64,000 bases of DNA, from assembly GCA_019247305.1 (NCBI GenBank), contig JAFAPC010000019.1, positions 3,437 through 67,436 of the forward strand, written 5' to 3'. Below, piece by piece: positions 611 through 16,272 of this stretch (its first letter is position 1; each line of letters begins with the position of its first letter). The notes under the pieces were generated by a model. It worked only from the letters and a program-made list of their open reading frames with translations. It searched no databases and was not told the DNA's origin. The position numbers and the translations under genes are program-made. The DNA comes from Pseudonocardiales bacterium (GTDB lineage: Bacteria > Actinomycetota > Actinomycetes > Mycobacteriales > Pseudonocardiaceae).

Positions 611-702
611 GCAGCCCCTGACCTGCTCGCCCGGTGCTCTCAGCGACAGCAAAGTCGATCACAAACCTACCGGCTGCTGCGGACCGCCGTGCAGGAGGAT
701 AC

Positions 703-1215
703 ATGTCGCTCTACGGGGATCCGGACGAGCTCGATCATCTCGCCGTACAGATCGAGCGACATGCTGATGACGTGCGCGACCGCGCTAGCGGGATGGACGC
801 CCAAGCCGCCGCGATGCGGTGGAAGTCCGTGGCTGCGGACCGGGCGCGCCAGACCGTGACGGGCGACAGGCGCAAACTGGATGAGACCGCGCGGCGTCTG
901 GATGAGGCGGCGGTCCTGCTACGGCGGCACGCCCAGGAAGTCCGGGAGATCCTCGCGATGATCCAGCGGATCGAGCAGGAGGTCATCGGCTGGTTCGACC
1001 ATGCGATCAAGGAATTCAACGACGCCGTCGCGGAGTTCACCGATCTGGTCGAAAACATTGCCCAAGGTGTGGTCCACTGGGTTACGGGTGAGCAGCCCGA
1101 GCCACCCAAGGAGCCGTGGCAGGGCTGGCCGTATCAGCCAAACAATCTGCCGCCCTCCGGGGACAAGCAGTGGCTGCAGGTTGGGGAGTTCATGCGCAAG
1201 CAGGGAGCAATTTAA
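703..1215 (+). CDS. WXG100/LXG-like helical protein (putative T7SS-associated secretion-signal domain protein)
   Basis: ATG at 703 preceded by AGGAGGA. The N-terminus MSLYGDPDELDHLAVQIERHADDV...AAAMRWKSVAADRARQ resembles the helical T7SS-signal/WXG-like domains of actinobacterial secreted proteins. An EspG-like gene follows with a 0-nt gap. Confidence 0.5.
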   Translation: MSLYGDPDELDHLAVQIERHADDVRDRASGMDAQAAAMRWKSVAADRARQTVTGDRRKLDETARRLDEAAVLLRRHAQEVREILAMIQRIEQEVIGWFDHAIKEFNDAVAEFTDLVENIAQGVVHWVTGEQPEPPKEPWQGWPYQPNNLPPSGDKQWLQVGEFMRKQGAI

Positions 1216-2037
1216 ATGACGGCAACCGAGGTGGTGCCAGCCGCGCACCGCCTCGTGCTGTCCGCAGACGAATACCAGTATCTGATCGAACTGGCACGAG
1301 TGGACATGCCACCGGGCTGGGAGCCGAAGGTAGCGGAGCATTCCGCATCGGTCAGGTCGGAACTGGCCAAACGTGGCGTACTGCAGCGGCATGATGGCCG
1401 ATTCACGGTCCATCCGTCGGTGTTGATAAATCTGCGGACCCTGACCACGCCGATGATCATAGTGGACACAACCGTTTCGATCGGCAACCGGGAGTCTCGC
1501 AGCTTGCACACCCTCGCCGGGCAACTGGGCGCTTCCCTGTTCGCTCTGGAAGACGGGGCCGTTGAGTTGTCTATGTTCGCCGCGGTGAATCTCGGGCAGG
1601 AGCTGATCAGGGCGGTGCCCGCCGAGCCCGACAGCGGCATCAGCTCCGTGCTCGGCGGATCTGCCGATCGCGAGCCGTTGCCCAGTGGCCGGGTCCCGCT
1701 AGGTGCGCTGCACGAGCTGGGCCTAGCCGCGCTACTAGCCGGCGCCGACCCCGATGCACCCAGAGCTGTGCTCGAGGGTCTGGACCTGCCAGCCGACCAG
1801 GCGTATCTCGCGAGGCATGTTAGCCGTTCGGATGGTGTGCTCAGGTCGTTGGTCACTGCCCGGACACCAAGCGGTGTCACGTCCAGCGTGGTGCTCTGGC
1901 TGCATCTTGAGTCGAGATGGCTAGGCATTCTGCCTGACCCGGATGGCTCGGGCAGGCACCTGGTGCGGCTTGAACCAGTGTCCCGTACAGATCTGGGTAC
2001 GTGGGTGGCGCCATTCATTGCCGGGGTGCTGTCGTGA
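1216..2037 (+). CDS. EspG-family (ESX secretion-associated chaperone-like) protein
   Basis: 273 aa. N-terminus HRLVLSADEYQYLIELARVDMPPGW and the overall pattern are typical of the EspG family. It abuts the upstream gene and overlaps the downstream gene (GTGA at 2034-2037). Confidence 0.55.
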   Translation: MTATEVVPAAHRLVLSADEYQYLIELARVDMPPGWEPKVAEHSASVRSELAKRGVLQRHDGRFTVHPSVLINLRTLTTPMIIVDTTVSIGNRESRSLHTLAGQLGASLFALEDGAVELSMFAAVNLGQELIRAVPAEPDSGISSVLGGSADREPLPSGRVPLGALHELGLAALLAGADPDAPRAVLEGLDLPADQAYLARHVSRSDGVLRSLVTARTPSGVTSSVVLWLHLESRWLGILPDPDGSGRHLVRLEPVSRTDLGTWVAPFIAGVLS

Positions 2038-3371
2038 CCGAGCCGACCGGGTTCGCGTTCACCGTGAGCGTCAGCGGTGGTGCTGGCGGCGTTGAAGCCC
2101 AGTACGAAGATCTTGCTGCCATGGGCCGGCTCACCGACGATGTCGCCGAAAACACCCTGTTCACCGCCGCCACCAGCCACCAATACTTGGCCAACCCCGA
2201 TGTTATCGCCTCCGCGATCCTCGATCCCGTCGGCGCTGCCCGGTTTGAGGCCGGCCTGCTCGCAGCGCTGGACGGGCCTGATGGACTGACGGCTACGTCG
2301 GTCGGTATTGGGTTGCGTGGCGCCGCGTTCCGCGCGTCCGCGCGGGCTTACCAGATATCTGAGGAACTCAACGCACGGGCGCTAGACGACATCCGCTGGC
2401 TGGAAGGAACACCGATCGGCGCGACGGTTACAGTCCCCGCGTTGGCCGGTTTCACGCTCGCCGAAGTCTACGGAAGAGACGACGGAAACTGGGAGAAGTT
2501 CCTGGTCGATCACCCCGGCCTGGTGGATCAGGCGATCGGAATGTCACCGGGTTTGCTCAGCAGCCTGCTCGGTGGGGAGAACAGCCTGGCCGACGCGACT
2601 GCCCTGGCGGCCAGCCTGTACCCCGATGGCTCACCCCGGGTCACCAATGGTGGTCTCGATCCGAATCAAACGCCACCGCCGCGGGGACTAGGCGATATCC
2701 TTAACGGCCTCCAACATCGAGATGACCCAGGGCGGGGCGATGATAACAACATCGATGTGCGCAAAGTCATCGGTGCCGACGGCAGGGTGTCCTACATCGT
2801 TGACATCCCTGGCACGAGAGTGTGGAACGCCCCGGGGGACAAGACGAGCAACGCCAATGACCTCGGCACCAACCTGAACGCGATGGCCGGCAACCCGACC
2901 GTTCTGGAGAAAGGCATTCAGGTAGCACTGAGCCGGTCCCACGTCGGGCCACACGATCCCGTTATGCTGGTCGGTCACAGTCAAGGAGGCATCGTCGCCG
3001 CCCGGGCCGCGAACGACTTTGTCTCCAGCGGTCAGTACAACGTCACCCACGTGGTCACTGCGGGCTCCCCCATCGGCCGAATTGCGGTTCCCGACAACGT
3101 GCAGGTACTATCGTTGGAGAATCGAAACGACATCGTACCCCACCTGGACGCCAGCGATAATCCCGATACCGCGAACCGCACCACGGCAACATTCGATCAT
3201 CAAACAGGAACAATAGCGGGAAACCACCAAATCGCTGGCAACTATTCAAATGTCGCCAAGCAGCTCGACAGCAGTCACAATCCATCAGTGGAAACATTCA
3301 AGAAAAGTATGGGAAACTTTACCGGTGGCTCCCAGGTCGAAACCTACCGGTACAAAGTGGAGCGAGAATGA
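2034..3371 (+). CDS. Two-domain protein: helical N-terminal region (~230 aa) plus C-terminal alpha/beta-hydrolase (lipase/esterase-like)
   Basis: GTG 2034 overlaps the EspG stop (GTGA). Nucleophile elbow VMLVGHSQGGIVAARA; downstream LENRNDIVPHLD (candidate acid residue). The N-terminal domain contains YQISE (a YxxxD/E-type motif) about 106 aa from the start. Confidence 0.65.
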   Translation: MTEPTGFAFTVSVSGGAGGVEAQYEDLAAMGRLTDDVAENTLFTAATSHQYLANPDVIASAILDPVGAARFEAGLLAALDGPDGLTATSVGIGLRGAAFRASARAYQISEELNARALDDIRWLEGTPIGATVTVPALAGFTLAEVYGRDDGNWEKFLVDHPGLVDQAIGMSPGLLSSLLGGENSLADATALAASLYPDGSPRVTNGGLDPNQTPPPRGLGDILNGLQHRDDPGRGDDNNIDVRKVIGADGRVSYIVDIPGTRVWNAPGDKTSNANDLGTNLNAMAGNPTVLEKGIQVALSRSHVGPHDPVMLVGHSQGGIVAARAANDFVSSGQYNVTHVVTAGSPIGRIAVPDNVQVLSLENRNDIVPHLDASDNPDTANRTTATFDHQTGTIAGNHQIAGNYSNVAKQLDSSHNPSVETFKKSMGNFTGGSQVETYRYKVERE

Positions 3372-3856
3372 CTCGCCTTGGTACGTGGTATTCGGCCGCG
3401 GTCGCCGTACTCCTGGTGGTGATCCTGTCGGGCTGTACCGCCTTCGTCAATGACCAGAACAAAGAAGCGAACGACCTTGGCCTGCGCATTGTTTCACAGC
3501 TGAAGGCTCAGCCCTCTGTCGCCGACGCCAACTATACGTTCAAATCCAGCCTGGACGTCTCGCCACGCATGGCAGTCTCGGTCTTGGTCAAACCCGAACA
3601 GGCAACACACGACCGGGCCCAGAGATTGGTAGACCTTGCCATGGACGCTTATTGGCATTCCTCCGCCGATGTCCAGACTTTTTCCGTCAGTGTTTATTCG
3701 GTCGCTCATCCACCAGTAGCGGGCCAGGATAACCAGAAACGAGAGATCGCTGGCGGAGAAGTCCACCTCAACGCCGATCAGCAGAACAAGAGTACGGATC
3801 AGCGCAGGCTCGAGGAGAAGTTCGGCCCGCGCCCAACGCCCACTCCAACGAAGTAG
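3368..3856 (+). CDS. Lipoprotein (candidate immunity/partner of upstream hydrolase)
   Basis: ATGA overlap with the hydrolase stop. Signal peptide with lipobox LLVVILSGC-TAF. Confidence 0.6.
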   Translation: MTRLGTWYSAAVAVLLVVILSGCTAFVNDQNKEANDLGLRIVSQLKAQPSVADANYTFKSSLDVSPRMAVSVLVKPEQATHDRAQRLVDLAMDAYWHSSADVQTFSVSVYSVAHPPVAGQDNQKREIAGGEVHLNADQQNKSTDQRRLEEKFGPRPTPTPTK

Positions 3857-3945
3857 TGCCAGGCCCTTCCGCCATCCGGCACGTCACGGCGCTCGGCAGA
3901 CTTCTGCCGCGCCCGGCGCACTCGCTGACGCGCTGCTCTCCGCTG

Positions 3946-5181
3946 CTACTCGCGGAGGCGGATCAGATCGGGTGTGGTGTGCAGTGGGTTGCGGCGTGGG
4001 GGTCCGCTGAGCCAGGGTGGTGGGTGAAACTCTGGAATACCGCCGACCATCTCGATCCGCCAGTCAGAATGGTGGAGAAGTCGATGGTGGCGGCCGCAGA
4101 GCACAACGCAATTCGCGAGGCTGGTCGCACCGCCGTCCGCCCAATGTTTCACGTGGTGAATGTCGGACCAGCGGGCCGGCACAGCACACCCCGGGAAAGC
4201 ACATCCGCCATCGCGCAGGACCACCGCGCGGCGGATCGCCACCGGCACGGTGTGGCTGGCGCGGCCAACGTCCAGCGGCTCACCGCGGGCGCCCAGCACC
4301 ACCGGAATGATCTGCGCGTCGCAGGCGATGCGGCGAGCAATCTCGGCGTTGATCGGACCGCCCAAGGCCAACGACGCCGAACCGATCCGGCGCGCCAGCA
4401 CGGGCAGGTTCACCGTCACCACTACCTGCGGGCGCTCTCCGCCCTCCGTCGGTAACTCACCGCTGCCCAGAGCCCGCTGGGCAAGCTCGACCAGGGCGTC
4501 GGCGTCGCGCTGCGCCGCATCTCGCAGGTCGATCTCGGTCTCGGTGGCCGGGCGAGGCGCGGCTAGCGGACTCAGCGCCGAGCGGACGATCTCGGCGGCT
4601 TCCCGATCGAGCCATCCGCGCAGCTCATAGCCACCATCCCGGTCATGAAAACTCAACCGCCGCCGGGCCTCGGGAATGTCGCGGGGTGGCCGGCCGTCCT
4701 GATCCAAATAGGCCAGGATCCGCTTACCCAGCACCGCCAGCTGCCCAGCATCCAGAATGCGAGCCTGGCGGGCCAGCTCAGCCTCGACCTCAGCCCGCTG
4801 CTGCTCACCCAGATGCGGGGGAATCCGAGCCAGCACCGAGCGGATCACCGCGACCTCCGCGGCGCCGATCACATGCTCGGCCACCGCCGCCGCCGTAGCC
4901 GGTAGCCGCGGCGGCACTGGCGCGCCACCCAACCCTCGCCCGGGAAGCACATCAGCCGCGGCGTCGATCCGGGCCCGTGCCTCGCTCCGCGACACCCGCG
5001 AGACCGCGCGCACCAGCTCCACCGTCGTGCCATACCCCACCGTCGCGGCTGTCCCCCGGGCATCGAGTTCGGCCACCACCGACAGCATCTGCGCCCACGT
5101 CGCATGCAGGCGGGTCTCCAACGCCTGGAGTTCGGCAAGCAACTCCTGGTCACTGGCCTGCCACTGCGCCACCGTCGACAT
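3946..5181 (-). CDS. HNH endonuclease with DUF222 N-terminal domain (actinobacterial 13E12-type family)
   Basis: 411 aa. HNH core RDGGCAFPGCAVPARWSDIHHVKHWADGGATSLANCVVLCGRHHRLLH. Confidence 0.85.
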   Translation of the reverse strand: MSTVAQWQASDQELLAELQALETRLHATWAQMLSVVAELDARGTAATVGYGTTVELVRAVSRVSRSEARARIDAAADVLPGRGLGGAPVPPRLPATAAAVAEHVIGAAEVAVIRSVLARIPPHLGEQQRAEVEAELARQARILDAGQLAVLGKRILAYLDQDGRPPRDIPEARRRLSFHDRDGGYELRGWLDREAAEIVRSALSPLAAPRPATETEIDLRDAAQRDADALVELAQRALGSGELPTEGGERPQVVVTVNLPVLARRIGSASLALGGPINAEIARRIACDAQIIPVVLGARGEPLDVGRASHTVPVAIRRAVVLRDGGCAFPGCAVPARWSDIHHVKHWADGGATSLANCVVLCGRHHRLLHHSDWRIEMVGGIPEFHPPPWLSGPPRRNPLHTTPDLIRLRE

Positions 5182-5303
5182 GCCCTCACTCTAGGTGGGA
5201 ACACCGACAAAAACCGGCCGCACGCGAGCGCACTCGCCACCCGGCTGGTCCGCAGGCTTCGTCTCGGGCGTTCGTGGGATACTCATCGGCGACCCGAGGA
5301 GTC

Positions 5304-5783
5304 GTGGTGACCGCCCTTCCTGAGCCGCCTGGCCAACTGCTGACCATCGCGGAGTATGCCGCCCTCGGCGAAGACGACCGCTACCGCTGGGAACTCCAGG
5401 AGGGCAATCTCGTCATGTCGCCGAGCCCAACGCCGCGCCACATGATTGCCTCCGGAGAACTGCGTGATCAGATTAAGCAGCAGTTGCCACCTCACCTGCG
5501 GGTGATCCAGGACGTCGACATCGATCTGCAGCTCGCCCCGCCCGACCAACCCGGCGTCTCCCGTCGACCAGACCTGATCGTCGTCGATCAGAGGGCGCTC
5601 GACCGGGTTGACGCCGACGCCGGCATCCCGCACTATTGGATCGTCGATCTCGAACCGCCGGTGACCCTGCTAGCCTGCCATCTCGCTGGCGAGTTCGGCT
5701 ATCAGGACGCCGGCGCCGTCACTGGCGAACTCATCACCGACGAGCCAGCTGAGCTCAAGATCAGCCTTGACCAGCTGAGCTAG
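5304..5783 (+). CDS. Uma2 family (DUF820) endonuclease
   Basis: GTG 5304/5307 after GAGGAG. Family pattern LTIAEYAALGEDDRYRWELQEGNLVMSPSPTPRH...RRPDLIVVD...GIPHYWIVDLE. Confidence 0.8.
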   Translation: MVTALPEPPGQLLTIAEYAALGEDDRYRWELQEGNLVMSPSPTPRHMIASGELRDQIKQQLPPHLRVIQDVDIDLQLAPPDQPGVSRRPDLIVVDQRALDRVDADAGIPHYWIVDLEPPVTLLACHLAGEFGYQDAGAVTGELITDEPAELKISLDQLS

Positions 5784-5981
5784 CTCCTACCGGTCGCGGC
5801 CCGGTGTCGTCGTTACAGGCAGGGGCAGCCGAGGGTTCACAATACTATTGCGGAATGCGGTGCCGTGCTCAGGCGGGATAGCCAGGTGAGCAGAGCGCAG
5901 GAGATCGATGCCGCGTTACGGCGGATAGCGCGGGGCTACCACGCGCTCGCCGACGCTGAAATACGTGAGACAGGAAAGTAG

Positions 5982-6796
5982 ATGAGTACCCTCGACGTTC
6001 CAGGCGCTCAGCTGTACTACGAGACCCACGGTAGCGGACCACTCATGATCATGATCCCCGGGGCCCTGGCAACGCCGACGTCTTCACCTCGGTGACCGCA
6101 TACCTGGGGGAGCACTACACCATCGTCACCTACGATCGACGCGGTTTCTCTAGGAGCACCCTCGTTGGTCCGCAGGACTACGATCACCGGTTGGAGACAG
6201 ATGCCGACGATGTCCGGCGCTTACTCCAGCATCTGAGCGATGAGCCCGCAATCGTCTTTGGCAGCAGTGCTGGCGGGGTCGTTGCCCTGGAGGTCCTGGC
6301 GCGACACCCCTGCGTGGTCCGTACGCTCGCTCCATTCGAACCAGCAGCTATGAAGCAACTGCCCGACAGAGAAAAGTGGGTGGATTTCGTCTTCGCTCTT
6401 TACGACCTGTACCGCCGAGCCGGGATAGCACCAGCGCTAGAGAAGTTCCGCACGCACCTGTTCGTAGAGTCAGACCGGCAGGTCATGGCGCGCGCACCGG
6501 AACCGACGAACGGCGCCAATGCCACCTACTGGTTCGAGCACGAACTGCGGCAATACTCGACAGCCGATCTCGATCTTGACGCACTTACCGCCCATGCCGA
6601 TTGGATTGTGCCGGTGGTCGGACGGGAATCCCGTGGTTATCCAACCTATAGGGTAAACGTGGAACTGGGTAAGAAGCTCGGTCGGGATGTGATCGAGCTG
6701 CCCGGCGGTCATGTCGGTTATGTGGCTCAACCCGCCGAGTTCGCCCGCGAGCTTATGCAGGCTCTCGCGGGCACAGCGCACGGACCGACGAGGTGA
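5982..6796 (+). pseudogene. Alpha/beta hydrolase, frameshifted near 6060-6070
   Basis: ATG 5982 (AGGAAAG upstream) gives MSTLDVPGAQLYYETHGSGPLMIMIPGA, then runs into a stop. The protein continues in another frame (ORF 6092..6796: ...NADVFTSVTAYLGEHYTIVTYDRRGFSRS...GSSAGG...GGH). The frames differ by 2 nt. Confidence 0.6.
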
Positions 6797-6799
6797 CGC

Positions 6800-7130
6800 T
6801 TGCCGCTCCCTCACCGCCGCTGGGACGAGGCGCTGGCCGTGCTCACCCGGCTCGGGAGCACCCATCGCGGGGAGCTGATGACGATCGGCAACGGCAGGGC
6901 CTCCCGGGAGACCGACCAGCTCGCCACCGAGCTGGCGCGGCGGCTGGGCCTCGCCAAGGCCGTGGTGTCAGCGGCGAGCGCCTCGGCCTACGCCAGCCAC
7001 GAACTGCCGGAGCTGGAGATGTCCCTGCGCGGCGCGGTCTCGATCGCCCGCCGGTTGCGCCGACCCGCTCGCGGAACTCGTCAAGATCGATCCCAAAAAC
7101 TGACTAGTGCGGCTCAGCGGCCAGCGCGGC
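6800..7130 (+). pseudogene. Fragment of a tex-like gene (YqgF/RuvC-like domain region), internally frameshifted
   Basis: IGNGRASRETDQLATELARRLG...SASAYASHELPELEMSLRGAVSIARRL matches the Tex central domain. The expected continuation DPLAELVKIDPK is readable only in another frame. There is no N- or C-terminal remainder. Confidence 0.55.
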
Positions 7131-7212
7131 TACCATGATGGATGGTGGCCACTACCTGCCCACACTGTAGGTCTTCAAAAGGCTGTTGCGTGTCTCCGAG
7201 AGGAACCCTTCC

Positions 7213-8034
7213 ATGGCGCCGAAGCGGCTACGTCGCAACTCGCCATTTGTGACTGGTGACGGTATCCAGCCGGCTGCCCCGACCACTAGCCCCTTGCTGC
7301 GCGCACCGACTGAGCTCAACAGCGACTTCCCCTGGGACGAATTCGACTCCTACTGGTACTACGACCACAACTACAAGACGTTGCGCGACGACGACCGGCA
7401 GATCATCCAAACCGTCCGGGATTTTTTCGTGACACTCGACCCGTCGAGTCACCGACACGGCATCGACGTGGGCTCGGGATCTAATCTTTATCCAGCCCTG
7501 GCCATGCTCCCGCTCTGTCACGAGATCACGCTTTACGAGTACTCAACCTCAAACATCTCATGGTTGCAGCGCGAGATCCAGTCCTACTCGCCGTCCTGGG
7601 ATGCCTTCTGGCAGTTGCTCGCCGTAGCACCACTGTACAAGTCAGTTGATTCTCCGCGAGCAACACTCGCCGCCGTGGCCCAGGTCGAGCGGGGCAGCAT
7701 CTTCGACCTGCCCCGCTCACGGTGGGACATCGGTACGATGTTCTTTACCGCAGAGTCCATTTCATCGACACCGGCGGAGTTCCAAGCCGCGCTGCGGAGC
7801 TTCATCACATCGTTGCGCACGGGGGCACCGTTCGCGGCCGCCTTCATGGAGAAGTCACTGGGGTATGATGTGGGCACACGCCGATTCCCGGCAGTCGCTA
7901 TTACAGTGAATGACGTGGAAAATTGTCTGGCGACCAATACGGAAGTTTTGGATCTTCACCGGATAGGCCTCACCGAAAATCCGTTACGCAATGGTTACGA
8001 TGGTATGATCCTGGCCACCGGAAGAGCCGCATAG
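7213..8034 (+). CDS. SAM-dependent methyltransferase, NNMT/PNMT/TEMT-like fold (recalled as SCO2525-family)
   Basis: ATG 7213 after GAGAGGAA. FPWDEFDSYWYYDHNYKTL...GIDVGSGSNLYPALAMLPLCHEITLYEYSTSNISWLQREI resembles the NNMT/PNMT motif arrangement. Confidence 0.75.
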   Translation: MAPKRLRRNSPFVTGDGIQPAAPTTSPLLRAPTELNSDFPWDEFDSYWYYDHNYKTLRDDDRQIIQTVRDFFVTLDPSSHRHGIDVGSGSNLYPALAMLPLCHEITLYEYSTSNISWLQREIQSYSPSWDAFWQLLAVAPLYKSVDSPRATLAAVAQVERGSIFDLPRSRWDIGTMFFTAESISSTPAEFQAALRSFITSLRTGAPFAAAFMEKSLGYDVGTRRFPAVAITVNDVENCLATNTEVLDLHRIGLTENPLRNGYDGMILATGRAA

Positions 8035-8066
8035 CGAGACTCAAGGACGCAGATGGGCAACTACCG

Positions 8067-9923
8067 ATGAAGATTCAACCGCGACGGCAGCTCCTGGATG
8101 TCTGGCACGCCACCGCTCAAGCATCTCTTCAGGATGGCAAATGGATGCCGGGCGGTCGCGACGGAAGTAACTCGATCAGCGATGCGGAGCAGTTGCTCTG
8201 CATCATGTATCCCGTGACCGAGCTTCCTTCGTTCCAGCTGGCCAGACCCGACGAGACAGCGGAGGACATTCTCGATGGGCTCGAAGTCCTCGGCGACAGC
8301 CTCGACATCCCCCAGCTGCTCATCAGAGCCTTGATCGAGTACATGGAACGGTATAGAGATGATTCCGGGTCACCTATTTTCTCCGGCGAAGGTTATTTCG
8401 ACCTAGCTGACCCAGAAGCAGTATCGAGCCATGGCTTAGGGGAGCTCGATATCGTCGACTCCTTCTCAATGTCGATCACACTGACACTAGCCACCCTCGC
8501 TTTTATCCAAAATTTTCGCCGTGTCGTTAGCCGGGAAGATCTCCGACAAAAGATAGACAGACTCAAAGAATTGTCGAGTGTCAGGTTGACGGCGGCGATG
8601 GTCGGCCTACTTCGCAGCTTCAGCCTGCACGTCTTTGACGTTCGGTCGGAAGCCGGCCGTATATTATGCGGACGATCCAACCAAAGCGGCTTACCCGAAC
8701 GTCAGATCATCGCTGATCTTCAGGCCAAGCTGCGGCCGGTCCGGAGCAGTCTGCAGGCCCTGACTCTTGGTTCGGGGCAAGCCGTTGCCGACCTCGACAG
8801 CCCCAACCGGCTTTTCGAGTGCGGGTGGTCCTGGGGAATCGTCAAGGACGCTCCCCCTATTAACACATCAGTATTAGACAGTGCCACGCTAGAAAAATTC
8901 GCGCAGCCGGACGGCTTCGCCATGGATAGGCCGCCTCTCTATTTCACGGGCACCGCCTTGGATGGCATCGAGGACCTGTTCTCCGAGCGCACCCGACGCT
9001 TGGGCCTCCTCGACGAAGGACAACGCCGGCTGATGAACTCACTTCAGGTTCGACGAGACCTCACCCAATTGTACTGGTCGACCATCGCGACTTTCGGCAC
9101 TGGCCGGTGGCCGCTAGAAGACCTCCCCTGGTGTACTTCGGATGGTCAGGAGTCTGACTACTACAGTTTACAGGTCTCTTCCATGGTGGTGCAGGACCTG
9201 GTGAGCCGCCGAGCGTCCGATTCAGAGCTTGGTCGGGTCGGAAGGGTTCTCCAGGACCTGGCCAACCGTAGTCGGATCAATCGGCGGCCGGTGCGCGACG
9301 ACGCCGCCCTCGACCTACACGCTCCCGGCGTACCGCAGAGGTTGCGTGGCAGTGAGAAGGTTGCCGGTCAGACCGTCGGCTGGCTGGTCTCCAACTTCGC
9401 ACCCCTCCTGCTGAAACGTACCCTCGCGGTCGCGCAGCTGCTGCGCGACGCTGAGCTGCGCGGCGACCTCCTCACGCTCGCGGACAGTATCTGGGATCAC
9501 CTGCTGCTGCGCCGGCTCAAGGACGGCTCCGGTCGAGGCCTCTGGGACCAGCCAGGCGACGCCTTCGAGCAACTGAGCACCCATCACGAGCTGCCGTCGT
9601 GGTATCAGACGGAACGCGTGGTCGAATGCCTGGTCGCGGCGGCGAATATGGTCGAGCGGGCGTCGCTGCGCAGCGAGCGACTGACCGAGACCGCCAAAGA
9701 CCTGCTCTATGAGGCAGACCTCCTGTACGACCGCGAGTTGCTGCTCGGGTCGGGAGCTGGGCCGTCGATGCGAGGGGTTTTGGAGGCAGCACGTGCGAAC
9801 CTGCAGCATGCCTGGGAGATCCTGAACGACCGCCCGGGCAGTGCCGCAGCGCTCGCCAGCGAGGTGTTACGTGAGTTCGAGCGGCTGGATGTGGCTCGCC
9901 GCGACGCGACCCGGGAGACGTGA
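8067..9923 (+). CDS. Large (618 aa) mostly helical protein of unknown function (recalled as SCO2524-family)
   Basis: Long ORF with coding-like third-position GC. First in-frame ATG after the methyltransferase stop. The 3' end overlaps the next gene (GTGA 9920-9923). Confidence 0.7.
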   Translation: MKIQPRRQLLDVWHATAQASLQDGKWMPGGRDGSNSISDAEQLLCIMYPVTELPSFQLARPDETAEDILDGLEVLGDSLDIPQLLIRALIEYMERYRDDSGSPIFSGEGYFDLADPEAVSSHGLGELDIVDSFSMSITLTLATLAFIQNFRRVVSREDLRQKIDRLKELSSVRLTAAMVGLLRSFSLHVFDVRSEAGRILCGRSNQSGLPERQIIADLQAKLRPVRSSLQALTLGSGQAVADLDSPNRLFECGWSWGIVKDAPPINTSVLDSATLEKFAQPDGFAMDRPPLYFTGTALDGIEDLFSERTRRLGLLDEGQRRLMNSLQVRRDLTQLYWSTIATFGTGRWPLEDLPWCTSDGQESDYYSLQVSSMVVQDLVSRRASDSELGRVGRVLQDLANRSRINRRPVRDDAALDLHAPGVPQRLRGSEKVAGQTVGWLVSNFAPLLLKRTLAVAQLLRDAELRGDLLTLADSIWDHLLLRRLKDGSGRGLWDQPGDAFEQLSTHHELPSWYQTERVVECLVAAANMVERASLRSERLTETAKDLLYEADLLYDRELLLGSGAGPSMRGVLEAARANLQHAWEILNDRPGSAAALASEVLREFERLDVARRDATRET

Positions 9924-10843
9924 CGATGCTGGTTTTCGCGACGTCGGACAAGGGCGGCACCGGGCGCTCGGTGACGAGCAGCAACGTCGCCTATCGTCGA
10001 GCCGTACTGGGTCATGACGTGTGCTACTTGGATTTCGACTTTGGTTCCCCGACCGCAGGCGCAATCTTCAACATTCCCACGGCGCTCCGTGGCACCCGCA
10101 ATGGCGGGCTGCACGCGTATCTTCAGGACAAGCGCAACGAGCCGGAAGAGCTGGATGTCTGGTCAGAGTCGGACCGCACAGCTCTGCGTGACCGGCCGGC
10201 GAGCGCCGGCCGGCTGGTGTTGTTCCCTGGGGATATCGGCGGCTCAGAGTTCCCCACTGACCCGAGCATGGTCCAGCGATGTGTCCGTCTTTTCCTTCGG
10301 CTGGAGGAGGAGTTCGAACTGTGCCTCGTCGATCTTAGTGCAGGACGTTCGTACGCCACCACGATGGTGCTCGCCGCCACAGCCGAGCCAGCGCTGCGGT
10401 CAGTGACCACCCGCTGGCTGGTGTTCCACCGGTGGACTCGACAGCACATCATCGCCGCACACGGTCTGGTCTACGGCGACGGAGGAATCCTCGACATCGG
10501 TGTTGACCGGGGTCATGACCGGAAAGCTCTGGCCAACTCGATTCGTTTCGTCCGGACAGCCGTTGTCGACCCCAACTCCGCGGAGTTGGCTGGGCTGCGG
10601 CCGGCGCAAGTGGCGTGGTTGCGCGACGTCAACCGGGGTCTCCAGGAGCTCGCGCGCGAGCAGAAGCTCGGCCGCACCGCACTGCTGGGTGAAGTACCGC
10701 TCGACCCGGTGCTGCAGTGGCGTGAGCAACTGATCTCTGACAACGATACCTACGCGAGTCAGATCGCCAATCGGGAGACCGTCGATGCGTTCGAGAGGCT
10801 GGCCAAAAAGCTGGTCGACGAGGAAGTATGGAGGGGTCTGTGA
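9920..10843 (+). CDS. ParA/MinD-like variant P-loop protein (recalled as SCO2523-family)
   Basis: N-terminus MTMLVFATSDKGGTGRSVTSSNVA is a deviant Walker A with Arg replacing the GK[ST] lysine. Walker B-like LCLVDLSAG. Confidence 0.75.
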   Translation: MTMLVFATSDKGGTGRSVTSSNVAYRRAVLGHDVCYLDFDFGSPTAGAIFNIPTALRGTRNGGLHAYLQDKRNEPEELDVWSESDRTALRDRPASAGRLVLFPGDIGGSEFPTDPSMVQRCVRLFLRLEEEFELCLVDLSAGRSYATTMVLAATAEPALRSVTTRWLVFHRWTRQHIIAAHGLVYGDGGILDIGVDRGHDRKALANSIRFVRTAVVDPNSAELAGLRPAQVAWLRDVNRGLQELAREQKLGRTALLGEVPLDPVLQWREQLISDNDTYASQIANRETVDAFERLAKKLVDEEVWRGL

Positions 10844-11835
10844 CATCGGCGGATGCGATCTTTCGTGAAGTGGCCGCGGAGCGTCGGATGGCGTCAGTTC
10901 CCCTTTCCCACCTGTCGATTGAGCTCGGCCACCTCTACCGGGAGGACTTTACGGCTGGTCTGGACCTTCAGCAGCATTTTGAGCGGGTCGCTCCATGGGT
11001 GAACGCGGGACGCCAGGCCTACGCGGAGCGCCCAGGTCGCCAGCACCAGAAAGGTCGACAGACCCGAACCCGGGTCAGCACGTGCTTCCTGGTCGATGAC
11101 TACTTTATGCGATTCAGCTCGCCCGCTGAACTGGTGCCCAAGCTGGTGAGCGCCGCACACGCGGCCGGTCTGGAGATTGACTACCTGGTCCGCGAGTCCG
11201 GATGCGCCGACACCGGGGAGGTGGCACTGGCGCGCTGCGTGGAGGGTCGCTTGGTGGTGGACCCACCTGCCGCCACGAATGGCTCCCGACCACCAGTTAC
11301 TGAGACGGGATGGCTCTGCAACGGCCAGCGTTCACCGGTTAACCCTGAGCCAGCGATGAGTCCGGTCCGGCCGTGGACGCCACCGATCGAGAACTCGGCC
11401 CGGCGACACTCGATTTTTCTCGATGTGCAGCTGTGGGACGAGAACAACGGCCGAAGGACCTGGTCCTGCCCATTTCTGGCGGCGGTCTGGCAGTTGCTCC
11501 GGCTCGGGATGCTCCGGTACGACGGTGCGGCCGTCGCGGTGCCCCAAAAATGGGACGGCGGATTCCCCGACGGCTGGGATAAGATCCCGGTGGTGACCCA
11601 GCTGAACCCGACCGCCGCGCCGTTCAGCGCCTATCGAACACTATCCCTGCTCTCAACAAAATTTCTGCCCATCGAACATGCCGTGCGGATAATTCTCAGC
11701 CAGGTCGCAATAGATCGTGACGTGCTCACTCAGGTGACGACACGCAGCCGGAGCGAAGGTATTGAGCTGCCACCGGAGCTCGTCGATCGGATCGAGTACG
11801 TCTTTGTGGGCAGCGGCGCCGACCCGCCATCTTAA
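10828..11835 (+). CDS. Protein of unknown function (recalled as SCO2522-family)
   Basis: 335-aa ORF overlapping the upstream stop (ATG 10828, or GTG 10840 in a GTGA overlap). No motif recognised. Confidence 0.65.
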   Translation: MEGSVTSADAIFREVAAERRMASVPLSHLSIELGHLYREDFTAGLDLQQHFERVAPWVNAGRQAYAERPGRQHQKGRQTRTRVSTCFLVDDYFMRFSSPAELVPKLVSAAHAAGLEIDYLVRESGCADTGEVALARCVEGRLVVDPPAATNGSRPPVTETGWLCNGQRSPVNPEPAMSPVRPWTPPIENSARRHSIFLDVQLWDENNGRRTWSCPFLAAVWQLLRLGMLRYDGAAVAVPQKWDGGFPDGWDKIPVVTQLNPTAAPFSAYRTLSLLSTKFLPIEHAVRIILSQVAIDRDVLTQVTTRSRSEGIELPPELVDRIEYVFVGSGADPPS

Positions 11836-11859
11836 GGAACTCCGAAATCCTCACGCGAC

Positions 11860-12849
11860 CTAGGGCTCATCCAGCTCCTGCTGCGCGGCGGCCCAGAGTT
11901 CCTCAAATCGCCGTATTCGCTTTTTCACTCGTTGGGGCTCAAGTGAGAGGTTATTTTTGATGACTGTTGGTTTCATGGTCTCTTCGACGCGTGCGGCTGG
12001 TGTGGTCTCGTAGCTGATGACCTCGTCGAATATAATGAAGTCGAACAGCAGGTTCTTGAGGGTTAAGGGGATCGTGGACCGGTCCAGTACCTTGGTGTGA
12101 ATTCCAAGATCCCGCTGCTTCCGGTAGACGCGGAGGAAGACTGGATCGCTGGTCTGTCCAGGGCCGTCGTGGATGAAGATCCGCCTGATAGCGACTCCGC
12201 GATACATGGCCTCGCGCTGAAGCTCGAGGTAGCGCTGGCCAAACTCACTTGTCCAGAACCCACCGTCGAAACTGATCCCACCGCCATCCACCGTACTCAA
12301 GCTGATGGCGTCAATGGTGTGTTGGACTTGCATGGTGAGTCCCAGTATCCAGTCCCGGTCCTCGCCGTCGCACGAGACGTCTCCGCCTTCGCTGAGCCCT
12401 TTCAAGAGCTGGGACATCCGGCTAATCTGCGCCTGGGCAAATCCCCAGACTAACGACGGCGATTCCGGCCCGATCTGGGTGGCATGCTGCACGAGCTGGA
12501 CGACCGTATCCGTCTGCAGCGCCGACGCCTCCATCGCCTGGAAAAGCTCGATCACCTCGCTTGTGCGCGCGAATCCGTCTTTGACGAGAAACTGCATCTC
12601 GGTCGAGTGGACCTCTTGTTTCTCTTCGACAGACTCCAGACGTTTCTCGAAGTCGTTCAGGAACTGCACGACCAGCGTGAATCCACCGATCAGGACAGAG
12701 ATGGTCGAAACCCAGATTCGCGGCTGGTCCGCCAGCGTGGTGATGAGGTACGTCAATCCGCTGGTCAGGAGCGTGATGAAGATCTTGAGAGTCACTTTCC
12801 CATATTGCGCCCGATTGACCTCGTCAGCTTGCGTCATGCTCTTCTCCAT
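11860..12849 (-). CDS. Membrane-anchored protein (2 predicted TM helices, coiled coil, C-terminal alpha/beta domain of unknown function)
   Basis: TM segments VTLKIFITLLTSGLTYLITTL and IWVSTISVLIGGFTLVVQFL. The C-terminal pattern RRIFIHDG...LFDFIIFDEVISYE has no recognisable catalytic motif. The gene overlaps the upstream - strand gene's 3' end. Confidence 0.65.
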   Translation of the reverse strand: MEKSMTQADEVNRAQYGKVTLKIFITLLTSGLTYLITTLADQPRIWVSTISVLIGGFTLVVQFLNDFEKRLESVEEKQEVHSTEMQFLVKDGFARTSEVIELFQAMEASALQTDTVVQLVQHATQIGPESPSLVWGFAQAQISRMSQLLKGLSEGGDVSCDGEDRDWILGLTMQVQHTIDAISLSTVDGGGISFDGGFWTSEFGQRYLELQREAMYRGVAIRRIFIHDGPGQTSDPVFLRVYRKQRDLGIHTKVLDRSTIPLTLKNLLFDFIIFDEVISYETTPAARVEETMKPTVIKNNLSLEPQRVKKRIRRFEELWAAAQQELDEP

Positions 12850-13786
12850 TATCCTCAGCTAAGGAGCTCAACAGCATGATGGTATGCAAAGCCACTTGGT
12901 CTCGGATCCAGCCGACCGACACATCCCACTGCTTGGTGAAACCAGGCCGCTGTTCCAAACTTTCCCACAATGGCAGCATGAACTTCTCCAGCCGTGCTGC
13001 CGGCATCCACAAGTGCAGCAGGTTGTCGATAGCGGGCCGCAGCCGCTCGACCACCTGGGGGCGCGCACTGCGCTCGCTCCGGCTGCGTTCGATCGGCTTC
13101 AGCAGCGCGGTGAGCAGCCAGTCGTGCAGCGCGAGGTCTTCACACAGCTCGACGGCGGCAAGCAGGCTGTTCTGACCGACCGTCAGTTGCACGGTTCGGG
13201 TGGTGGTGTCCTCAACGGTGAACTGGACCCGACCCTCTGCCGGCTGCGCCTCGGTCACCACGACGACGCAACGCATTCGGGTACGCGCCATCAGGAACGG
13301 AGGCCGGCGATCGAGCTCTGGCGAGCGGTGCTGGACCAGGTCCATCATCCGGCCGCTGATCGCTCCCAGGTCGAGACTGTCCGGTGCCGGCCCGGTCGTG
13401 AGGAAGCCACCAGCGAGGTCGGCGTGATCCGCCTTACCGAGGGTCTCGACAACGCCCGGCCGGGACAGATAGTGCGACCACGGCAGCCGCCGATCGGCCT
13501 CGCTCCTGATGATGGAGGCGTACGCGGACCCTTGCAGCACCCGGCCACCGGTGATCGCCGCTCGGGACACCGCAGTGCCGATCCCTCTGACTTTAGCCCC
13601 CGACGATGTCGCCAATCGACAGTCGACCCCAGTCAAGATCTCCGGTGACACCGCGTGCGCAATAGGGCGCTCAGAGCAGCGGACTCGGGTGTCTTCTAGG
13701 AGGGCAAGGAGTTGCGCCGAACGCGGCTGGGTGAGTGACGTCGAGTTCTGCAGAAGCCCGGTGTGTATCTCACCCACTGTCAGCAT
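12824..13786 (-). CDS. Protein of unknown function (position consistent with SCO2521-family)
   Basis: 320-aa ORF convergent with the four + strand cassette genes. No motif recognised. Confidence 0.6.
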   Translation of the reverse strand: MLTVGEIHTGLLQNSTSLTQPRSAQLLALLEDTRVRCSERPIAHAVSPEILTGVDCRLATSSGAKVRGIGTAVSRAAITGGRVLQGSAYASIIRSEADRRLPWSHYLSRPGVVETLGKADHADLAGGFLTTGPAPDSLDLGAISGRMMDLVQHRSPELDRRPPFLMARTRMRCVVVVTEAQPAEGRVQFTVEDTTTRTVQLTVGQNSLLAAVELCEDLALHDWLLTALLKPIERSRSERSARPQVVERLRPAIDNLLHLWMPAARLEKFMLPLWESLEQRPGFTKQWDVSVGWIRDQVALHTIMLLSSLAEDNGEEHDAS

Positions 13787-14173
13787 TCCGTCAGCATTGC
13801 ACCCCAGACAGAGTTACTCCACCCTTGAGAGGGTTATCGTATCTCCTACTTACGAGAGCGGAACCGTACTGTCAGGATGATCCTTAGCTGCGATCCGGGT
13901 GGACCAGAGCACAAGCAAGGCAAACCGAGCAGCTGCCCTCGCCTTCACTGGTGCGCTCGCCGACGCGCTACGCCGCGCCAGCTACCACGGAGGTTCAGAG
14001 CAGCATCCTGATCTTTGACATTTCGGGCACGGTTCGAGAGGATGGACGCTGGTCACGACGGCAAGCCCAGGGCCATCACCCGTTTGCGGTGCGTCCATCG
14101 GCGCTGCGCACCGGTCGCCGCTGGTGCGCCCAGCATCGGCGGGCAGCCCAGGACACCCACGGAGGTGGGGACG

Positions 14174-14791
14174 ATGGCTGTTCGCCTGCGGCTGGCGGGT
14201 GCGCTGGTTCTCACCGCCCTCAGCGTGGCCCTCACCGGAGCCGCGGTCCCTGCCAACGCCAACACAACGACTGCGCCGACGCCTCCCGCCGCCTCGATCA
14301 CCGCTCAGGCCGACCCCCCGAGCGGGTGGGTGACCACCACCGATCCGGTGAGCGGCATCAGCGTGATGCTGCCCGGCCAGCCCACCGTCAAGAACACCAC
14401 CACCACTGATGCCAATGGTGAGACCCTCCCCCTTCGCCAATACCTCCTGGAGTTCGACGGGGGCAACAGGGCTGTGCTCTTCCAGGTCATCGACGCTACT
14501 TTCCGCCAGGTCGACTTCGACAAAGCCCTGCAAGGAGCAGCGTCCGCCCAGTCGGACGGGACGGTGACTGACGGGACGGTGACTAATAGTCGCCACTTCG
14601 TTCTCGACGGTCGCCCCGCCGCTGATGGACGCATTACGGCTACCGTTGCGGGCACCCCCGCCGTCTATCTTGTCCGCCTCGTCGCGGACAATGGCTACCT
14701 CGTCGGGATCATCACTCTCGGTAAGGCCACCGAGGAGGATGCTCTGATGTCGTTCCATCAGCAGGTTCTGGGGACCCTCCGCCTCATCTGA
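14174..14791 (+). CDS. Secreted protein of unknown function
   Basis: ATG 14174 after GGAGGTGGGG. Signal peptide MAVRLRLAGALVLTALSVALTGAAVPANA. Internal DGTVT-DGTVT duplication. Confidence 0.6.
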   Translation: MAVRLRLAGALVLTALSVALTGAAVPANANTTTAPTPPAASITAQADPPSGWVTTTDPVSGISVMLPGQPTVKNTTTTDANGETLPLRQYLLEFDGGNRAVLFQVIDATFRQVDFDKALQGAASAQSDGTVTDGTVTNSRHFVLDGRPAADGRITATVAGTPAVYLVRLVADNGYLVGIITLGKATEEDALMSFHQQVLGTLRLI

Positions 14792-14877: not shown

Positions 14878-16272
14878 ATGAGAGCTGGGAGCGCCTTCGC
14901 CGTGACCGCCGCCCTCGCGCTCGCCGCCGTCGTGACCACCGCTACGGCCGGGTGCGTAACCCAGACCGCGCCCTCGGCGTCAGCACCGATGAGCAGCGCC
15001 CGTCCCCCGAGAGAAGGCGCGCCGGCTGCGGTTGGCCCCGCTGACTGGCCGACCTACCACCACGACAACGCCCGCACCGGCGTCGCCGCAGGGCTTGCCC
15101 CGCTGGGCACGCTGCACCAAGCGTGGCAGACCCGGTTGGACGGCGCGGTGTACGGCCAGCCACTGGTGATCGGCGAGACGGTGATCGCCGCCACCGAGCA
15201 CGACACGGTCTACGCGCTGGCCGCCGCGGACGGGCACGTGCTGTGGTCGGCGTCGCTGGGCACGCCCATGGACGGCACGCAGCTGCCCTGCGGCAACATC
15301 GACCCGTTGGGGATCACCGGCACGCCCGCCTACGACTCGAGTACCGGGCTGGTCTTCGTCGTCGCCGAGACGCAAGGTGGCCGGCACACCCTGGTCGGGG
15401 TGGACCTGGCCAGCGGCGCGGTACTGCTGCGCCGCGCGCTGCCGCCACCGAAGGGCGAGGAGAGCGCCCACCAGCAGCGCGCCGCGCTGACGGTGCTCGA
15501 CGGCTGGGTGTACGTCGCCTACGGGGGACTGTTCGGTGACTGCGGCCACTACATCGGCTCGGTGGTCGCCGCGCCGACCACCGGCACCGGGCCGCTGCGC
15601 AGCTACGCCGTGCCGACCACCCGGGAAGGCGGGATCTGGGCACCCGGCGGTGGTGTCGTGCACCACGGACGGTTGCTGTACGCGGTAGGCAACGGCGAGT
15701 CAACCCAGGACTACGACCACAGCGATTCCGTGCTCGCGCTGACCCCGGCGCTCACCCTGGCGGACAGTTTCAGCCCCGCGCAGTGGATCGCCGACAACGC
15801 CGACGATCTGGACCTCGGGTCGATGAGCCCGGCCGTGGCCGGGGAGCAGGTGCTCGCCGTAGGCAAGAGCGGGGTGGGCTACCTGCTGGATGGCGCCCGG
15901 CTCGGCGGGATCGGCGGCCAGCTCACCAGCATGCCGCTGTGCCGGGCGTTCGGCGCCACCGCGGTGGCCGGCTCGACGGTGTACCTCCCGTGCACCGACC
16001 GCACGGCCGCGGTGGACGTTGACCCGGCGGGGGGTATGCGGCTGCGCTGGAAGGCCCCGGTCCCGGCTGATGGGTCCCCGGTCCTGGGGGGCGGCGCGGT
16101 TTGGGTGACCGACACCGACCACGGGGTGCTCTACGCGCTCGACCCGGCCACCGGCGCCCCCCGCCAGCACATCAGCGTCGGCCCCCTCCCCCACTTCGCC
16201 TCCCCCACCCTGTCCGGCGCCCACGCCTACCTAGGCACCACCACCGGCGTCATAACCATCGCTGTGCGCTGA
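14878..16272 (+). CDS. PQQ-like beta-propeller repeat (BamB-like fold) lipoprotein
   Basis: Signal peptide with lipobox TATAGC. WPTYHHDNARTG...YGQPLVIGETVIAATEHDTVYALAAADGHVLW repeats typical of PQQ-like propellers. Confidence 0.75.
   Translation: MRAGSAFAVTAALALAAVVTTATAGCVTQTAPSASAPMSSARPPREGAPAAVGPADWPTYHHDNARTGVAAGLAPLGTLHQAWQTRLDGAVYGQPLVIGETVIAATEHDTVYALAAADGHVLWSASLGTPMDGTQLPCGNIDPLGITGTPAYDSSTGLVFVVAETQGGRHTLVGVDLASGAVLLRRALPPPKGEESAHQQRAALTVLDGWVYVAYGGLFGDCGHYIGSVVAAPTTGTGPLRSYAVPTTREGGIWAPGGGVVHHGRLLYAVGNGESTQDYDHSDSVLALTPALTLADSFSPAQWIADNADDLDLGSMSPAVAGEQVLAVGKSGVGYLLDGARLGGIGGQLTSMPLCRAFGATAVAGSTVYLPCTDRTAAVDVDPAGGMRLRWKAPVPADGSPVLGGGAVWVTDTDHGVLYALDPATGAPRQHISVGPLPHFASPTLSGAHAYLGTTTGVITIAVR

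Follow-up and report, generated by a model that had tools for sequence, protein, structure and literature searches.

What is the function of a ParA-like protein in which arginine has taken the place of the canonical P-loop lysine, and of the five genes that accompany it? The question is raised by a cassette at positions 7213 to 13786 of a 64,000-nucleotide stretch of contig JAFAPC010000019.1 (assembly GCA_019247305.1) from a Pseudonocardiales bacterium; this whole stretch is referred to below as the window. The original prediction, made from the sequence alone, took these genes to be the SCO2521-SCO2525 family set, named after Streptomyces coelicolor genes, with one extra membrane gene, and proposed that they encode an undescribed system. 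From the profile matches and the comparison of related loci, it is nearly certain that the locus is a genuine SCO2521-SCO2525 gene set together with a sixth core gene, the latter encoding a membrane protein with a putative DUF6879 domain.

Family assignment was made with hmmscan, against the curated cut-offs of NCBIfam and the gathering scores of a local copy of Pfam. Five proteins of the window have one strong NCBIfam match each, at 1.4 to 2.8 times the cut-off, and the families are those named in the original prediction: NF040568 (SCO2525, the methyltransferase; 326 bits against a cut-off of 240), NF040567 (SCO2524; 834 against 300), NF040564 (the SCO2523 variant P-loop protein; 505 against 200), NF040566 (SCO2522; 451 against 200) and NF040565 (SCO2521; 395 against 150). 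NCBIfam contains no model for the DUF6879 membrane protein. Precomputed annotation of homologs also names newer Pfam families for SCO2524 (PF28103) and SCO2522 (PF28097), but these names, like those of the NCBIfam set, carry no function.

All six predicted open reading frames (ORFs) are present. Four lie on the plus strand in the order in which the S. coelicolor genes are numbered, from 2525 to 2522: an S-adenosylmethionine (SAM)-dependent methyltransferase of the SCO2525 family, with the NNMT/PNMT/TEMT fold (7213..8034; 273 amino acids, aa), the SCO2524-family protein (8067..9923; 618 aa), the SCO2523-family ParA/MinD-like variant P-loop protein (9920..10843; 307 aa) and the SCO2522-family protein (10828..11835; 335 aa). 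The two overlaps that had been described can both be read in the sequence, as a GTGA stop/start overlap of SCO2524 and SCO2523 at 9920-9923 and a 16-nucleotide (nt) overlap of SCO2523 and SCO2522 at 10828-10843. Other in-frame starts exist at an ATG (9926) for SCO2523 and at a GTG (10840) for SCO2522, the latter leading to a 4-nt GTGA overlap, and the NCBIfam model starts at residue 3 for SCO2523 and at residue 12 for SCO2522; the two genes are tightly coupled whichever start is used. Directly 5' of the methyltransferase ATG at 7213 stands GAGAGGAA, and a longer version of this protein from a TTG at 7186 is possible. On the minus strand, the SCO2521-family gene (12824..13786; 320 aa) was found to be convergent to the plus-strand operon and to overlap the membrane gene (11860..12849; 329 aa), as had been stated, by 26 nt. 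It lies beyond the membrane gene, with which it forms an inverted two-gene module; the convergent stop codons of the two strands are 24 nt apart. The cassette has a G+C content of 57-65%, against 69-73% in its flanks. A promoter and terminator scan gave signal no better than that of shuffled sequence, and an Rfam scan returned no match and no riboswitch.

A scan of one genome per species for relatives of SCO2524 found at least 425 loci, and the best 80 of these (50-70% identity) were surveyed by BLAST of the six window proteins and by two rounds of clustering, the second with a GC3-based gene caller. The cassette is widespread, being kept as a block by filamentous actinomycetes in their hundreds and by a few bacteria unrelated to them, and is present in S. 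coelicolor, a tractable model organism. All 80 loci are from organisms named as Actinomycetota; the most similar are metagenome-assembled genomes (MAGs) of Pseudonocardiaceae, and after them come Micromonosporaceae, Streptosporangiaceae, Frankia and Mycobacteriales MAGs. The best related locus has 70% identity, and a fragment of SCO2521 is 100% identical in an ENA metagenome. One locus, L050 (Sphaerisporangium sp. TRM90804, NZ_JARWAC010000002.1), lies on a 346-kb record labelled 'plasmid unnamed', which is the sole hint that a copy may be carried by a plasmid; the search of PLSDB returned none.

The core genes stay together in every locus of this survey, in line with the block that had been proposed. 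SCO2524 and SCO2523 are found in 80/80 loci and SCO2522 in 78-79/80, and this trio is contiguous, with frames that overlap or abut. SCO2521 is found in 76 loci, the methyltransferase gene adjoins the others in 54 and the DUF6879 gene is present in 56. The last of these, where present, is always directly 3' of SCO2521, whether the two-gene module is convergent to the four-gene operon or codirectional with it. Because this position is kept in either orientation, the DUF6879 gene is, on the comparative evidence, a co-conserved sixth core component and not a passenger; it is also found in a colinear form of the operon, and its description as an 'extra' gene has to be abandoned. The HupS-regulon paper names the S. 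coelicolor genes as 'operon sco2521-sco2526', and, given this name and the colinear variant, SCO2526 can be put forward as a candidate for the DUF6879 gene. A second DUF6879 membrane paralog occurs upstream of the methyltransferase/SCO2524 operon, besides the copy after SCO2521, in the Actinoplanes loci L047, L055, L057, L062, L065 and L069. No further neighbours common to the loci beyond the family level were found in the 80 loci, and the flanks of the window are syntenic only with those of the nearest Pseudonocardiaceae loci. Six TTA codons, a rarity in high-G+C actinomycetes, are present in the window SCO2524 gene, and the S. coelicolor SCO2524, which also carries a TTA codon, has been detected in a foraging secretome. 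General control through TTA (bldA) is nevertheless not indicated for the cassette, as the SCO2524 orthologs contain TTA in just 20/80 loci, and the share of genes with such a codon is only slightly higher in the cassette than in the flanks (19% against 14%).

A search with SCO2524 of 1.84 billion representative proteins returned only 309 clusters, and the contigs of several members at 27-35% SCO2524 identity contain distant variants of the cassette, with G+C contents of 40-65%. Two of these, L085 and L086 (contigs of 7.2 and 6.6 kb), have a complete colinear six-gene operon in the order DUF6879-membrane protein, NNMT-like methyltransferase, SCO2524, ParA-like protein (HKGGTGRS), SCO2522 and a 351-aa protein in the SCO2521 position. 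As the G+C content of these contigs is 40%, the metagenomic host is probably not a high-G+C actinomycete. In L087 the order is DUF6879-membrane protein, SCO2524, ParA-like protein (HKGGSGRT), SCO2522, a 333-aa protein and an oxidase gene of the DAO family, with a Tubulin_2 gene and an Ldh_2 gene upstream. The cassette of L089 is surrounded by insertion sequence (IS) elements and a group II intron, and consists of SCO2524, a ParA-like protein (HKGGTGRT), SCO2522, a 411-aa protein with a transmembrane (TM) hairpin at its C-terminus, the methyltransferase and a helical protein of 528 aa with a C-terminal hairpin of the same kind. In L088 (53% G+C) the methyltransferase and SCO2524 are accompanied by a ParA-like gene with HKGGTGRS, and a further locus has a divergent methyltransferase gene followed by SCO2524, ParA-like, SCO2522 and 662-aa genes. 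Hence the methyltransferase is kept in four distant variants, at differing positions, and a membrane hairpin is present in every set, either in the DUF6879 protein or, in L089, in the 411-aa protein of the SCO2521 position and the 528-aa protein. Homology of the proteins in the SCO2521 position to SCO2521 itself could not be demonstrated (hhalign E 0.08); a W...PGVV-like motif is all that they share with it.

These comparisons bear on the simplest alternative, that shared descent alone has kept the genes adjacent and that they do not constitute one system. The methyltransferase, DUF6879 and DAO genes are each missing from some loci, as might be expected in that case, and synteny within families could reflect shared ancestry. 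Descent alone does not account for a SCO2524-SCO2523-SCO2522 trio that is contiguous across the surveyed loci with coupled frames, nor for partner genes that stay together after reordering and over a range of G+C content from 40% to 72%. This explanation is hardly credible, and appears to be largely refuted by the comparative data. That the partnership outlasts both rearrangement and a large change in base composition provides strong evidence, of a comparative kind, that the cassette is one functional unit and that it has undergone some horizontal spread.

The protein that gives the set its character is SCO2523, for which 84 sequences were aligned, comprising 81 close orthologs and three distant variants. 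In the window, the deviant Walker A motif KGGTGRS (9950..9970, plus strand) lies within SDKGGTGRS, and can be compared with NQKGGVGKT in the genuine ParA of the same window (60706-60726), as the original prediction had pointed out. The arginine in place of the GK[ST] lysine extends to every homolog: K11 and R16 are present in 84/84 sequences, with G12, G13, T14, G15, D38, D40 and D138 conserved in at least 97%. DKGGTGR[ST] is found in all 81 close orthologs and KGGxGR[ST] in all 84. Since the latter motif is universal and the switch-I and Walker-B aspartates are kept, the alignment indicates that the change from lysine to arginine is a fixed, selected variant of the nucleotide site, and not the mark of a decayed ATPase.

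SCO2523 resembles ParA, MinD and Soj, of the SIMIBI class, in having the signature lysine (KGG), a switch-I DxD and a Walker-B aspartate, and its P-loop region aligns with archaeal MinD (1hyq) and the CapB tyrosine kinases. It differs from them in the replacement of the canonical P-loop lysine in every member and in its own family-specific motifs (HRWTxQH, VRTA and PxDPxLQWxE). Its Pfam scores are below the gathering scores for both ParA (24.1 bits against 27.1) and CbiA (18.2 against 25.4), and no ParB, MinE or MinC partner is co-conserved with the cassette in the 80 loci. An Mrp/ApbC-type Fe-S carrier was considered and rejected, as no cysteine is conserved and the matches span the P-loop only. 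A natural switch of this kind should be of general interest for the workings of ParA-family proteins.

The NNMT/PNMT-type layout attributed to the methyltransferase is upheld by its match to PF01234 (NNMT_PNMT_TEMT), at 44 bits against a gathering score of 25, and by the family profile, which matches PNMT and NNMT structures over nearly the full length (E ~1e-11). This alignment includes the N-terminal tyrosine-rich motif, and SAM motif I of the family, GIDVGSGxNLYP, is aligned to IDIGSGPTIYQ. The characterised matches in the Protein Data Bank (PDB) are nicotinamide, phenylethanolamine and indolethylamine N-methyltransferases (NNMT, PNMT and INMT); identity to these is low, and the window protein differs from them in an N-terminal extension of about 35 residues. 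On this sequence evidence, the protein is a member of a small-molecule-type N-methyltransferase family. SCO2522 also has the look of an enzyme: 54 of its columns are invariant, many of them polar, including H35, D90, D91, E123, C126, H194, D199 and C214. It has no local Pfam match, and a profile search of PDB sequences came back empty. SCO2522 and SCO2521 were compared as possible paralogs, which was rejected at an hhalign probability of 2%.

Oxidases recur beside the cassette. An FAD oxidase of about 320 aa resembling D-amino-acid oxidase (DAAO) adjoins the SCO2521 end in 41/80 loci (for example L009:14822-15865, plus strand), and a second type of DAO, of 393 aa, has the same place in six Streptosporangiaceae loci (for example L039:15590-16768, minus strand). 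With the DAO gene at 12883-13902 (plus strand) in the distant variant L087, such D-amino-acid-oxidase/glycine-oxidase-like FAD genes are found near the cassette in three different arrangements. No DAO gene of either type is present in the window or in its closest relatives.

This raises the alternative of a plain small-molecule pathway, in which an N-methylated amine or imino acid would be made or degraded, the membrane protein would act in sensing or export, and the ParA-like protein would be a maturation or assembly NTPase, in the manner of CooC, NifH and the Mrp-type SIMIBI NTPases. The methyltransferase belongs to a family that N-methylates small molecules, the DAO-family oxidases are recurrent, and L087 has in addition a gene of the Ldh_2 family, which includes imine reductases. 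The many invariant polar residues of SCO2522 and SCO2524 are likewise enzyme-like. The difficulty is that many loci do without the methyltransferase and the oxidase, which is not so for SCO2524, SCO2523 and SCO2522, and that the cassette has no conserved transporter, regulator or riboswitch alongside it. Furthermore, SCO2523 contains no conserved cysteine or obvious metal-ligand motif, which argues against a carrier of Fe-S or Ni. A pathway of this type alone is therefore judged unlikely.

The 618-aa SCO2524 protein was modelled by AlphaFold2 with an alignment of 70 sequences. The model is all-helical (pLDDT 95, pTM 0.93), and SCO2524 is predicted from it to be a barrel-shaped (alpha/alpha)6 toroid. 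The best Foldseek matches in the PDB are six-hairpin proteins, comprising cellobiose 2-epimerases of the AGE family, GH76, GH8-like, DsbH/YyaL-type and GH105 proteins and MmpH. The probability of these matches is up to 1.0, but they are remote, with an E-value of 0.012 and TM-scores of 0.35-0.49; SCO2524 also exceeds the best-matching cellobiose 2-epimerase chains by about 200 residues, and a sequence and profile search of the PDB gave no match. In the 70 diverse homologs R173, G253, W256, P354, W355 and W512 are invariant, and E251, H418, H478, D412, D494, R401, R482 and R517 are conserved in at least 90%, such that the conserved residues are mostly tryptophan, arginine, histidine, aspartate and glutamate. 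A LanC-like lanthionine cyclase was rejected as an identity for the toroid because no cysteine is conserved across the family. Small-amine chemistry is suggested by the recurrent DAO gene, the single Ldh_2 gene and the N-methyltransferase, and a ligand of the sugar type by the toroid.

Another alternative is a role in morphogenesis or the cell envelope. SCO2524 would then be a cytoplasmic carbohydrate-active enzyme (an epimerase, isomerase or hydrolase) acting on a glycan or muropeptide, the DAAO-like enzyme and the methyltransferase would process its amine or D-amino-acid part, and the ParA-like protein and the membrane hairpin protein would direct the complex to where hyphae grow. Without exception, the closest structural matches of SCO2524 are carbohydrate enzymes of the six-hairpin type, and its conserved residues are of the kinds seen in sugar-binding sites; the frequency of DAO genes beside the cassette would be accounted for, and the named hosts are mycelial actinomycetes. 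The cassette is chromosomal and syntenic within families, with no PLSDB plasmid or phage copies by tblastn. The 2004 mutant study reportedly found that SCO2525 affects the growth and development of colonies in various respects. Papers citing that study (Gehring et al. 2004, J Bacteriol 186:3570) describe SCO2525 as a putative methyltransferase that is required for normal growth and has a morphogenetic role.

On the other side, the fold match is remote, with TM-scores that stay below 0.5, and no glycosyltransferase, transporter or peptidoglycan enzyme is co-conserved with the cassette in the 80 loci. The DAO gene that would supply part of the chemistry is lacking from the window and its closest relatives, the cassette is also found in an organism with a G+C content of 40%, and the fusions of SCO2524 with a putative vWA part in ternary conflict systems, described below, are left unexplained. 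Such a role is accordingly rated as somewhat doubtful. If it were correct, the cassette would be a new player in hyphal growth, explaining a mutant phenotype that is two decades old.

The two proteins of the minus strand are less easily compared with known structures. The AlphaFold2 model of SCO2521 (pLDDT 84, pTM 0.83) consists of a beta-rich N-terminal domain followed by a C-terminal helical bundle. Foldseek gave a best E-value of 0.06 and TM-scores of at most 0.21 against the PDB, and no match at E <= 0.001 against the BFVD viral structures, and a sequence and profile search of the PDB was also negative. With 1684 homologs at E <= 1e-5, SCO2521 is, as modelled, an orphan fold for which no structural relative was found. 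The 329-aa protein appears to have two hydrophobic N-terminal segments, a helical linker and a C-terminal DUF6879 domain. Its own score for DUF6879 (PF21806) is 16.8 bits, below the gathering score of 23.9, and the family is matched by 26/28 of its orthologs, with a best E-value of 6.8e-9; no match was obtained by sequence and profile search of the PDB. The claim that it has two TM helices holds in part: two hydrophobic segments are present, but only residues 45-65 pass the strict hydropathy threshold, residues ~19-40 being weaker. A TM-like segment is found in 55/56 orthologs.

A different line of evidence connects the cassette to conflict systems. Two SCO2524-family proteins of about 1100 aa have an N-terminal SAV_2336-type domain (NF041121) and a C-terminal SCO2524 domain, and are encoded by the third gene of operons whose first two are for a VMAP protein and a MoxR-like AAA_5 ATPase (L081:7238-13387 and L083:7198-13279). 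These operons can be read as VMAP-MoxR-vWA ternary systems in which the SAV_2336-type domain acts as the vWA part, although no vWA model was matched. In L081, a homolog of the DUF6879-membrane protein (E 1e-85) is encoded 5 kb upstream of the fusion locus on the same strand, and TPR, HD and Ricin-lectin genes are also upstream on that strand. The ternary systems, described by Kaur, Burroughs, Iyer and Aravind (2020, eLife, PMC7159879), resemble the cassette in being found mainly in multicellular actinomycetes, and their effector domains include predicted-inactive MinD/ParA-like ones, the commonest of those related to cell division. In contrast to them, the window cassette has no MoxR AAA+, vWA or VMAP component in the NCBIfam and Pfam scans, such components being confined to the fusion loci L081-L083, and SCO2522, SCO2521 and the methyltransferase are absent from the ternary loci.

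Further associations are found among the relatives. In a Plantactinospora/Micromonospora subgroup (~16-20 loci) a gene for a 1452-aa DUF4062-NACHT-HEAT protein is inserted between SCO2522 and SCO2521 (L014:13723-18081, minus strand), the methyltransferase and DUF6879 genes are lacking, and a LuxR-type AAA_16-GerE regulator and a PP2C phosphatase are encoded upstream. A regulated conflict or stress role is argued for by the presence of the SCO2524 domain in VMAP ternary systems, one of which has a DUF6879-membrane homolog 5 kb away, by the use of predicted-inactive MinD/ParA-like domains as effectors in such systems (PMC7159879), by the NACHT insertion, the Tubulin_2 neighbour of L087 and the IS element and group II intron context of L089, and by the HNH (DUF222) and Uma2 genes upstream in the window. 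The growth defect reported for loss of the methyltransferase alone in S. coelicolor would fit the loss of an immunity or modification partner. Such a role is favoured slightly ahead of one in the envelope or morphogenesis, with a plain metabolic pathway third.

The favoured mechanism, to which, with its regulated conflict or stress role, a probability of a little under 0.4 is given, is as follows. SCO2523 would be a dimerisation switch of the ParA/MinD type with an intact nucleotide site, in which arginine in place of the P-loop lysine leads to slow or conditional hydrolysis, making the protein a long-lived ATP-bound clamp and not a cycling positioning motor. The clamp may assemble the products of the genes coupled to its own, the toroid SCO2524 and the enzyme-like SCO2522, and this assembly would connect to a membrane module of SCO2521 and the DUF6879 protein, anchored by the hydrophobic hairpin. 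The NNMT-type methyltransferase, possibly with the participation of the DAAO-like flavoenzyme in many genomes, would make or mark a small ligand with an amine or ring nitrogen, to be bound by the toroid or by the DUF6879 domain, and the output would be the DUF6879 membrane protein. The whole might then serve a tightly regulated response of multicellular actinomycetes to stress or conflict, such as invader sensing or programmed cell death, and mis-regulation of the cassette would be expected to disturb growth and development.

A bolder proposal, which seems quite improbable, is that the slow ParA-like ATPase licenses the toroid, SCO2522 and the methyltransferase to write and erase an N-methylated small-molecule signal, with the DAAO-like enzyme opposing, and that the DUF6879 membrane-hairpin protein reads this signal, changing membrane integrity or hyphal growth. 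Were it true, the cassette would represent an undescribed class of signalling or immunity machine, with two components of new fold and a new kind of second messenger.

Several observations weigh against a conflict or stress role and the mechanism attached to it. The six proteins are evenly conserved across loci and the flanking genes are syntenic within families, a pattern that looks more like that of a vertically inherited housekeeping accessory than that of an arms-race locus. Roughly a third of loci lack an adjoining methyltransferase gene and about 30% lack the DUF6879 gene, and fusions of SCO2524 are rare, at 2/309 cluster representatives. Searches of known defence and mobile sequences were also unsupportive: the sole match in PADLOC-DB 2.0 was to PDC-M28B, at 18 bits and over the P-loop only, PHROGs contained no phage family match but a generic ParA-like one, and a tblastn search of 72,556 plasmids and 50,697 phage records found no copy in either. 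In S. coelicolor the cassette genes are reported to be controlled by HrdB and HupS, and the SCO2524 protein has been detected in unchallenged cultures. As to the mechanism, K-to-R Walker A mutants of other P-loop ATPases show slowed hydrolysis, and it is from these that the effect of the arginine is deduced; the interactions, the nucleotide behaviour, the substrate and the phage phenotype are proposals.

The conservons of Streptomyces (cvn operons) offer an analogy only, in that they too are conserved actinomycete cassettes of several genes with an NTPase switch and a membrane protein at their centre. They encode a small GTPase, a membrane sensor and accessory proteins, and have no homologous components in common with the cassette. 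Both sco2521-sco2526 and a cvn operon are included in the HupS regulon; the cassette genes are not listed in the supplements of that paper.

NCBI and Pfam already list the gene set, the existence of which is therefore not new. The proposal of an undescribed system stands to the extent that no mechanistic study of the cassette genes was found in the literature searched, which contains few mentions of them, but it has to be qualified by the SCO2525 mutant phenotype published in 2004. What is new is the sixth core gene, the facultative DAO partner, the universality of the change from lysine to arginine even at other base compositions, the predicted toroid fold of SCO2524 and orphan fold of SCO2521, and the link to VMAP ternary systems. 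The cassette joins an always-arginine ParA/MinD switch to two proteins that have no known relatives, a methyltransferase of the small-molecule type and a membrane protein. If it were a conflict or cell-death module, the NTP-dependent immunity of multicellular bacteria would extend beyond the types centred on MoxR, STAND and GTPase proteins.

The surroundings of the cassette in the window appear to have been altered on one side. At 5-529 (plus strand) a Tex-like gene is represented by its C-terminal S1-domain end, and a fragment corresponding to residues ~400-507 of the Tex-like protein, with 64-73% identity to that of L001, is found at 6806-7100 (plus strand), shortly before the methyltransferase gene. 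The loci closest to the window, L001 and L060, have the Tex-like gene directly 5' of the methyltransferase. Comparing the split pieces with this arrangement, the block of about 6 kb at 634-6796 looks like an insertion or rearrangement that has left a Tex remnant. The block contains genes for a DUF222-HNH endonuclease (3946-5181, minus strand) and an alpha/beta hydrolase (6092-6796, plus strand) and, on the strand opposite the HNH gene and overlapping it, a Uma2 (restriction-endonuclease-like) ORF (4977-5783, plus strand). On the other side of the cassette, divergent from SCO2521, a 258-aa ORF at 14015-14791 (plus strand) has an internal signal-peptide-like stretch (MAVRLRLAGALVLTALSVALTGAAVPANA) and no family match, its sole relative among the ORFs of the 80 loci being in L001. 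It is followed by a gene for a PQQ-type beta-propeller protein at 14878-16272 (plus strand).

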